Origin: Nanobdellota archaeon
GTDB lineage: Archaea; Nanobdellota; Nanobdellia; SCGC-AAA011-G17; GW2011-AR20
DNA length: 24,408 bases
Direction: 5' to 3'
Assembly (NCBI GenBank): GCA_018819375.1
Contig: JAHJQH010000071.1
Location: 1-24,408, forward strand
Positions 18,873 through 20,275 of the stretch are shown here, in pieces. Below the pieces are notes generated by a model that saw only the letters and a program-made list of their open reading frames with translations, did no database searches and had not been told where the DNA came from. A program made the position numbers and the translations under genes. Numbering within the stretch: the first letter of the stretch is position 1; each line of letters starts with the position of its first letter.

Positions 18873-19742
18873 TTACCCTAACTTATTAAAAAGCCCTTCA
18901 AGTCCATCCAATTCCCTGCATTTATTAATTCTTTCCCTTATTCTTGCACCACCCCGCATCCCTTTTGTAAACAAAATTGCATGATTCCGGATATTGTTAA
19001 AATTCACTCCAAACTTCTTGGCTAATTCCAAATAATCCAAAAATATTTCCTTGCTGTCACAGTTATTCTTACCAGCAAATATTCTTGGATTTTTAAGTGC
19101 AGTCCTGCCAATCATCACATAGTCACACCCTGTTTCTTTCATCATTTTTTCAGCATCCTCAGTATTATTCACGTCACCATTCCCAATCACGACAATATCA
19201 ACATTATCCCCTACTTCCTTAATCACTTTCCAGTCAGATTTTCCAGAATATCCCTGCTTGACAGTCCGTCCATGCACAATAATCGCACTTCCCCCGCACC
19301 TTTCAATAATCTTGGCAATCTCGACAACACCCCTGCATTTTCTCACTTTCACACTAACAGGAATATTCAGGCCATCAACAAGAGCAGAAATAATATTCTT
19401 AATCTCTTTCTTGTTCCTAAGTAAAGCAGCACCGTAACCACCCTGCATTATGTCAACACGAGGGCAGCCCATATTCACATCTATCACATTCACCTTTTTT
19501 TCAAACTTCTTTCCAGCCTCAAGCATAACACCAGCATTCTTGCCAAACAACTGCAGTCCAACAGGTTTTTCTTCATTAACTAACTGCACCTCAACCCCGC
19601 CATTAACAACTGCGTTTGCACTAATCATCTCAGTAAAACACATCCCAGCTCCAAATCTGCGGCACAAAACCCTAAAAGCAACATCACTATATCCGACCAT
19701 AGGTGCAAGAATCAATTTTGATTTCAGTTGAGGGAATTTCAT
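18873..19742 (-). CDS. dus: tRNA-dihydrouridine synthase (DusB-like)
   Basis: LAPMVG, TEMIS, QLFG, DVNMGCP, HGRT, GNGDV, MIGR motifs. Confidence 0.94.
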   Translation of the reverse strand: MKFPQLKSKLILAPMVGYSDVAFRVLCRRFGAGMCFTEMISANAVVNGGVEVQLVNEEKPVGLQLFGKNAGVMLEAGKKFEKKVNVIDVNMGCPRVDIMQGGYGAALLRNKKEIKNIISALVDGLNIPVSVKVRKCRGVVEIAKIIERCGGSAIIVHGRTVKQGYSGKSDWKVIKEVGDNVDIVVIGNGDVNNTEDAEKMMKETGCDYVMIGRTALKNPRIFAGKNNCDSKEIFLDYLELAKKFGVNFNNIRNHAILFTKGMRGGARIRERINKCRELDGLEGLFNKLG

Positions 19743-19894
19743 TTTAAAAATTTCTCCGCCTTCAGTTTATGTTTAGGGTTATTAAAACCAATAATTTCAT
19801 ACCACTCCTTTAATTGTGATACTCCATTCATTTGGATTCTTACTTTCCCTTTACCAATATCATAAACTCCAAATCTAAAACCATAGTTTCTCAA
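19739..19894 (-). pseudogene. C-terminal remnant of a LAGLIDADG-type homing endonuclease domain (frame open to 19999)
   Basis: LRNYGF...VRIQMNG.SQLKEWYEIIGFNNPKHKLK resembles the end of archaeal/intein LAGLIDADG domains; no LAGLIDADG helix upstream; stop overlaps the dus ATG. Confidence 0.6.
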
Positions 19895-19961
19895 TGAAAA
19901 ACATGAATTAATGAAACATTCAAAATTTATAAAAGTAATTAGGTGGTGGGCTGATCTGATA

Positions 19962-20160
19962 TAGCGGGAGAAGGATTTGAACCTCCGACCTTTACCCAAT
20001 CCAAAGAAGATTCCTTAGGACTTCCGGGTTTCGCCGAGGGCAAGAAATGCCTAACCCCATATGAGCCTTCCGCACTAGATAGTTTCCTAATCTAATTCGA
20101 CGGGCACTCCTGGCTGCCCCATCCATATAGACAAAACACAATTTTTGAGTTTCACTCGCT
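19962..20160 (-). tRNA. Initiator tRNA-Met(CAT) with four introns: 20125-20156 (4/5), 20068-20097 (29/30), 20030-20059 (37/38), 19992-20023 (43/44); CCA not encoded
   Basis: Joined exons give AGCGGGA TG GGGC AGCCAGGAGT GCCC G TCGGG CT CAT AA CCCGG AGGTC GGAGG TTCAAAT CCTTC TCCCGCT A (75 nt): complete cloverleaf, A1-U72, three G-C pairs at 29-31/39-41. Confidence 0.9.
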
Positions 20161-20275
20161 ATGATAGGCAACCAACCCACCAGTCAAATTCAACCAAACT
20201 CCTTTTAAAAGACTTTCGCTTGTCAGAAAGTTAAAGGCAGAAAGGTTAATAAACAACGCAAAATAACTAAAAGCT

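Follow-up and report, generated by a model that had tools for sequence, protein, structure and literature searches.

How can an archaeal tRNA gene be spliced when its first intron leaves only four nucleotides of the mature tRNA upstream of the cut? The question arises on the minus strand of a 24,408-nt stretch of DNA, hereafter the window, where positions 20160 to 19962 are an initiator tRNA-Met(CAU) gene in five exons, belonging to a Woesearchaeota-type DPANN genome. The preliminary description of the locus had placed an intron at position 4/5, with AGCG alone upstream of the cut, and had proposed that the bulge–helix–bulge (BHB) splice motif of this intron is built from the 5′ leader. Both points held up in our analysis: AGCG makes up exon 1, GGA opens exon 2, and leader nucleotides −2 and −1 lie in the central helix of the motif and −8 to −3 in its outer helix.

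An initiator tRNA gene in five exons

The exons are colinear, lie on one strand and span 199 nt. The exons and introns are laid out as follows:

20157 to 20160, minus strand: exon 1, AGCG, tRNA nucleotides 1–4
20125 to 20156, minus strand: intron 1, 32 nt, at position 4/5
20098 to 20124, minus strand: exon 2, nucleotides 5–29 in standard numbering, with the remainder of the acceptor 5′ strand, the D arm and the start of the anticodon stem
20068 to 20097, minus strand: intron 2, 30 nt, at position 29/30, BHB with central helix CCGU/GCGG, seven inner pairs and two outer pairs
20060 to 20067, minus strand: exon 3, GGCUCAUA, which holds the anticodon CAU
20030 to 20059, minus strand: intron 3, 30 nt, at the canonical position 37/38
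20024 to 20029, minus strand: exon 4, ACCCGG
19992 to 20023, minus strand: intron 4, 32 nt, at position 43/44, central helix ACCC/GGGU, five inner pairs and no outer helix
19962 to 19991, minus strand: exon 5, comprising the variable loop (AGGUC), the T arm, the 3′ strand of the acceptor stem (UCCCGCU) and discriminator A

Joining 20160–20157, 20124–20098, 20067–20060, 20029–20024 and 19991–19962 gives a 75-nt tRNA with a perfect 7-bp acceptor stem, the anticodon CAU and the marks of an archaeal initiator, namely A1–U72 and G29–G31 paired with C39–C41. ARAGORN called the spliced sequence as tRNA-Met(CAU) and left the unspliced gene uncalled; the sequence given to it was a 76-nt version with exon 5 from 19992, a start that the BHB cut rule later set at 19991. 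Applied to introns 1, 2 and 4, that rule (cleavage after the second bulge base) gives exactly the junctions of the mature sequence and cloverleaf, and as introns 2 and 4 yield the needed junctions under the same rule as intron 1, they provide an internal check on it. For intron 3, a geometry scan of the 251-nt precursor region found no strict BHB. The gene (19962–20160, minus strand) carries four introns in all, and published accounts give three as the maximum for archaeal tRNA genes (PMC3239211, PMC8450103).

Standard searches pass over the locus. ARAGORN found no tRNA in the whole window, and Rfam gave nothing at the gathering threshold, its sole match being a 14.7-bit partial tRNA on the 3′ half of the gene. 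An 86-aa open reading frame (19739–19999, minus strand) shares sequence with intron 4 and the 3′ exon of the tRNA and, given the tRNA gene, is probably spurious. The genome comes from groundwater metagenomes and comprises 706 kb in 98 contigs, with an estimated completeness of 84.6%. BLAST with the mature sequence found no second initiator copy in this assembly (~85% complete); a second, intact initiator gene may possibly lie in the missing part of the incomplete genome. Across the whole assembly ARAGORN called only 23 tRNAs, and in this 85%-complete sequence none for Met, Asp, Asn, Gln, His, Phe or Trp. Several of the tRNAs it called seem doubtful, among them one labelled "Pyl" and a Pro(AGG) reported twice. 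Noncanonical introns probably conceal many tRNA genes. Kaneta et al. (2018; PMC5829648) took gaps in the tRNA sets of DPANN as a sign of disrupted genes that had escaped detection, and the 23 calls and missing tRNA-Met are consistent with their remark.

The splice motif of intron 1 and the leader

The segment 20168–20118 on the minus strand folds as a strict 3-4-3 BHB composed of the following strands, listed from the 5′ end of the transcript:

20163 to 20168, minus strand: outer helix, 5′ strand, CCUAUC, leader −8 to −3
20159 to 20162, minus strand: central helix, 5′ strand, AUAG, leader −2 and −1 plus tRNA A1 and G2
20156 to 20158, minus strand: 5′ bulge, CGA
20149 to 20155, minus strand: inner helix, 5′ strand, GUGAAAC
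20138 to 20148, minus strand: loop of intron 1, between the strands of the inner helix
20131 to 20137, minus strand: inner helix, 3′ strand, GUUUUGU
20127 to 20130, minus strand: central helix, 3′ strand, CUAU, within intron 1
20124 to 20126, minus strand: 3′ bulge, AUG
20118 to 20123, minus strand: outer helix, 3′ strand, GAUGGG, tRNA nucleotides 6–11

Every element that the preliminary description had named was found in the sequence. The central helix is perfect, with four Watson–Crick pairs; the bulges CGA and AUG flank it; the inner helix has seven pairs, three of them G·U; and the outer helix has six, including one U·G. One assignment stood only in part: GAUGGG had been described as D-arm sequence, which is correct for D-stem nucleotides 10 and 11, but the strand is nucleotides 6–11 and so also takes in acceptor nucleotides 6–7 and nucleotides 8–9. 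Under the cut rule, the 5′ cut falls at 20157/20156 inside the CGA bulge and the 3′ cut at 20125/20124 inside the AUG bulge. Excising the 32 nt between them (20156–20125) joins AGCG to GGA and completes the 7-bp acceptor stem.

When the 251-nt precursor region was scanned systematically, this motif ranked first by a wide margin (six outer, four central and seven inner pairs) and was the sole BHB candidate with a 3′ exon beginning at 20124. It has all the features of a strict hBHBh′ motif: 3-nt bulges, a 4-bp helix, two or more pairs in each of the flanking helices, and a cloverleaf restored on excision. A BHB motif by itself is not rare. Across both strands of 1.41 Mb the genome background holds 108 BHBs with at least six outer and at least five inner pairs, or ~8e-5 per position. 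What goes beyond chance is a BHB exactly at the two cut sites that restore the acceptor stem, together with its recurrence in ten other genes, and the motif is in this sense established. An AGCG at 20222–20219, which a spliced aligner had picked arbitrarily as the 5′ exon, was rejected: it forms no BHB to 20124 and lies upstream of the TATA-like box. A search for further introns in the 5′ acceptor strands of the genome, anchored on 26 T arms, returned only the initiator gene and three chance-level matches.

Upstream of exon 1, three features describe the leader and its promoter:

20203 to 20210, minus strand: TATA-like box, TTTTAAAA, 50–43 nt before the first tRNA nucleotide
20161 to 20180, minus strand: predicted 5′ leader of ~20 nt, whose 3′ 14–15 nt are the third strand of the splice motif
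20169 to 20174, minus strand: extension of the leader–exon helix, leader −9 to −14 pairing with tRNA nucleotides 13–18 (20116–20111), with G12 bulged out

From the position of the TATA-like box we infer a transcription start near −20 and hence a leader of ~20 nt. RNAduplex gave the leader–exon duplex of this genome 12–13 pairs and −16.5 to −16.9 kcal/mol.

Recurrence of the intron in relatives and comparison with intron-less genes

Two patterns that left the leader and the intron free were run against 240 genomes of the order, and a second search took in 401 genomes of the class, ~314 of them from other orders. The 4/5 intron with a leader-built BHB was found in 11 initiator genes, this one included, from 10 Woesearchaeota-type genomes in five families and two orders. 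The carriers are:

family f1: G000 (this genome) and G002
family f14: G037
family f7: G168
family f22: G113, G103 (two copies), G106, G110 and G115
another order: G294

The intron is 15–32 nt long across the carriers. The central helix (leader −2 and −1 plus A1 and G2 against the intron's CUAU) is paired in all 11 genes, with G·U replacing A–U in one. The BHBs of the relatives have an outer helix of two to six pairs and an inner helix of two to five; that of G002, read in the standard register, has just two outer pairs in a row. Past nucleotide 11, pairing resumes after a bulge or internal loop of 1–3 nt and continues onto D-arm nucleotides 13–18, for a total of 7–13 pairs. By eye, nucleotides 16–17 and the leader read CC/GG (G−12 and G−13) in this genome and UU/AA in G168.

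For an alignment we used ten of the eleven genes, representing nine distinct sequences; the gene of G294 was found later and is excluded. Pairing in register amounted to 84.6% of cells, compared with 26–46% when the partner was slid by 1–3 columns, and the central helix was 100% paired across the nine sequences. The preliminary description had named covariation of leader and exon in orthologues as a check. It is seen at leader −4, which covaries with nucleotide 7: the two form U–A in five sequences, C–G in three and U·G in one. The C–G state is confined to four genes of f22, close relatives of one another that contribute three distinct sequences to the alignment, and the covariation represents few independent events. 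G103 carries two initiator copies with the 4/5 intron (L035 and L051, on contigs C16 and C56), and their leaders, CUAUCGU and GAUACCAU, both pair with the same exon; to judge from the two sequences, the copies look like a within-genome snapshot of the transition from U·G to C–G. The conservation of the motif and the covariation across these genes are thus established, within the limit just given.

Some pattern matches were not counted as carriers. The gene matched in G212 has no intron, an AGCG merely happening to lie upstream of it, the match in G417 is a chance match inside a coding sequence, and G055 matched the first pattern without a CUAU strand. Introns near the 5′ end of L015 (G015), L021 (G038) and L014 (G001) are, by eye, a different intron at position 7/8, with a central helix formed by tRNA nucleotides 2–5 (GCGG) and CUGC or CUGA, for which the leader is not needed. 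The initiator gene of G001 is seemingly in many more pieces, up to nine by spliced alignment, some of them possibly spurious. The gene of G294 (L137), also inspected by eye, seemingly has a 29/30 intron and two T-arm insertions besides the 4/5 intron.

As controls we took 15 initiator genes of the same order without an intron in nucleotides 1–12. The leader–exon duplex ranged from −8.7 to −16.9 kcal/mol in the intron-bearing genes and from −0.9 to −8.4 kcal/mol in the 15 controls, with no overlap between the ranges (nominal Mann–Whitney P = 1.7e-5, which is overstated as relatives are not independent). The promoters differed as well. In genes with the intron the start of the TATA-like box falls at −46 to −66, and in 13 of the 15 controls at −29 to −34. 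The box lies 20–30 nt farther upstream in the intron-bearing genes than in their intron-less relatives. The displaced promoter is an observation in its own right, and taken together with the stronger duplex it indicates that a leader of ~20–30 nt, complementary to the exon, accompanies the intron. The same logic of promoter distance uncovered permuted tRNAs (Chan et al. 2011; PMC3218864).

Folding, processing order and alternative explanations

The preliminary description had further argued that the acceptor stem cannot form until the intron is out and that splicing must precede RNase P cleavage. Folding predictions agree with the first of these statements. As long as intron 1 is in place, whether or not the other three introns are there too, the computed optimum pairs the leader with exon 2, and any fold with the acceptor stem is less stable than this by 8–10 kcal/mol. 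The exact BHB fold is itself 4.5 kcal/mol less stable than that optimum, whose central pairing differs slightly. With intron 1 removed, the optimum has the complete acceptor stem with or without introns 2–4, and the leader folds on itself. Folding thus predicts a switch between the leader–exon helix and the acceptor stem. As to the order, an RNase P cut at −1/+1 would do away with the outer helix altogether and with half of the four central pairs, so the leader must be attached or annealed when EndA acts. That splicing comes before RNase P is logically sound, and we infer it from the motif geometry and the predicted folds. None of the contigs from two metatranscriptome runs, made in a study whose data include this DNA, mapped to the locus, and the DNA runs showed only relatives with intron-less versions.

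Genes for processing enzymes are present in the genome. EndA is a single 206-aa protein with PF02778 and PF01974 (96.6–98.5 bits), its relatives bear the names Candidatus Woesearchaeota or Nanoarchaeota, and its closest solved structures are the catalytic subunit of N. equitans and the M. jannaschii homotetramer. Relative to the latter, an enzyme of narrow specificity, it has no insertion, yet introns 3 and 4 have relaxed motifs. The ligase RtcB (428 bits) and the RNase P protein Pop5 (53.5 bits) are encoded, and an Rpp29 match fell below the cut-off. The RtcB match is split into profile positions 1–50 and 49–407 by ~1.46 kb within one 957-aa frame (L139/L140, contig C33), an arrangement with the sequence signature of a putative intein in the ligase gene. 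Searches for RNase P RNA gave nothing in this genome (85% complete), G002 or G168 and detected it in the intron-bearing relatives G037 (138.8 bits) and G113 (73.3 bits).

We consider the following account very probable. Transcription would start near −20, and leader nucleotides −2 and −1 with A1 and G2 would pair with CUAU, −3 to −8 with nucleotides 6–11, and −9 to about −14 with D-arm nucleotides 13–18. The resulting leader–exon helix would hold the precursor without its acceptor stem, presenting both cut sites to EndA, which would excise intron 1 from a strict 3-4-3 BHB whose 5′ side is mostly transcribed leader. The same helix would keep the exon ends together for ligation by RtcB. Joining G4 to G5 would abolish the central helix, and the continuous acceptor strand would then out-compete the leader, allowing the cloverleaf to form. 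RNase P would trim the leader last, after the cloverleaf has formed.

Three other explanations deserve weighing against this account. RNase P might act first, with the intron real and the order not obligatory: the freed leader would stay annealed in trans through its 12–13 bp, and EndA would meet a BHB nicked in its central helix. The duplex of this genome is strong by itself (−16.5 to −16.9 kcal/mol), and EndA does cleave the trans-assembled BHBs of split tRNAs (PMC4090602). Yet RNase P needs the acceptor stem, which shares nucleotides with the leader–exon helix and is disfavoured by 8–10 kcal/mol while the intron is present, and the weaker duplexes of the relatives (−8.7 to −9.9 kcal/mol) would have a poor hold on a free 20-nt leader; we regard this course as quite unlikely. 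That EndA makes do with a relaxed, leader-free motif of the inner helix and a remnant of the central one, the leader complementarity being incidental or serving, for example, precursor stability, seems to us very unlikely. Introns 3 and 4 are themselves relaxed and have no outer helix, which suggests an enzyme that probably tolerates imperfect substrates, and in DPANN, EndAs have been linked to disrupted tRNA genes (PMC5829648). Against such tolerance as the explanation here, only two of the four central pairs are left without the leader, across five families the leader segment has been conserved and has changed in step with the exon, and the complementary leader and displaced promoter occur only in the intron-bearing genes.

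It is most improbable of all that the locus is a decaying pseudogene or carries a non-intron insertion, with the functional initiator tRNA gene located in the 15% of the genome that is missing from the assembly. An assembly of 98 contigs that is 84.6% complete and in which ARAGORN called only 23 tRNAs leaves room for such a gene, but the spliced product is a flawless initiator tRNA and the four interruptions are all placed so that their removal restores the cloverleaf. The interrupted design is, moreover, kept in ten other genes with a compensatory change, which decay would not preserve.

The favoured account, in which a leader-built BHB is cut by EndA, sealed by RtcB and refolded before RNase P acts, has partial precedents. 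Acceptor-stem BHB introns at position 3/4 occur in tRNAs of Thermoproteales (Sugahara et al. 2008, as cited in PMC4090602), and by their geometry these too must borrow leader nucleotides for the central and outer helices. As far as that citing account describes them, they resemble the present case in being protein-spliced BHB introns in the acceptor 5′ strand, often with several introns per gene, and differ in position (4/5 here, with an unambiguous boundary), in lineage (Crenarchaeota rather than DPANN) and in that the tRNA here is the initiator. Leader- or trailer-built BHBs are known from the split tRNAs of Nanoarchaeum equitans and Caldivirga and from the permuted tRNAs of Cyanidioschyzon and Thermofilum (PMC4090602, PMC4033280, PMC3218864). 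There, as here, sequence outside the mature tRNA makes the EndA substrate, and an unusually distant promoter betrays the extra leader. In split and permuted genes, however, two flanks pair together, in trans or around the permuted junction, and EndA discards both, whereas here a leader in cis pairs with an exon outside both cut sites, and RNase P must remove it afterwards. tRNAscan-SE 2.0 adds 60 nt of flank to catch noncanonical introns near the ends of genes and so implicitly recognises flank-dependent BHBs (PMC8450103). It is a detection heuristic, with training sets from Crenarchaeota/Euryarchaeota and Thaumarchaeota, and the paper describing it reports no leader–exon covariation, leader length or consequence for processing order (PMC8450103). 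Our literature search, outside whose reach the primary reports on the 3/4 introns lay, found no analysis of leader–exon covariation, leader lengthening or the resulting order. The intron is therefore best described as a new, well-supported instance of an archaeal tRNA intron type that, though rare, is already known; acceptor-stem introns and flank-built motifs have both been described.

In Methanopyrus kandleri, 3′ trimming comes first, followed by 5′ trimming and modification or editing, and introns are removed last (Su et al. 2013; PMC3695527). The enzyme set of RNase P, EndA and ligase would be the same, but the precursor described here is predicted to need its 4/5 intron out before 5′ trimming. 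There is, in our judgement, about an even chance that the leader goes further and acts as a co-evolving, cis-acting lock and timer: its 7–13-bp helix with nucleotides 6–18 would block premature RNase P cleavage, and removal of the intron would flip the RNA to the cloverleaf and so license RNase P, a programmed switch in the initiator tRNAs of several archaeal lineages. If true, this would enforce a processing order opposite to that measured in Methanopyrus and in eukaryotes.

For the DPANN genome studied here, where standard tools give 23 tRNAs and no tRNA-Met, the analysis recovers the missing initiator tRNA, and it implies that tRNA finders must model leader sequence to see such genes. The gene is also a clean case, provided by nature, in which to test the sequence of processing steps for archaeal tRNAs, as the predicted order reverses the only archaeal one measured so far (PMC3695527). 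Finally, the covarying leader and displaced promoter indicate that a segment that is neither exon nor intron can be selected as part of a splice motif, and such selection on the leader bears on the persistence of introns at the very ends of tRNA genes.
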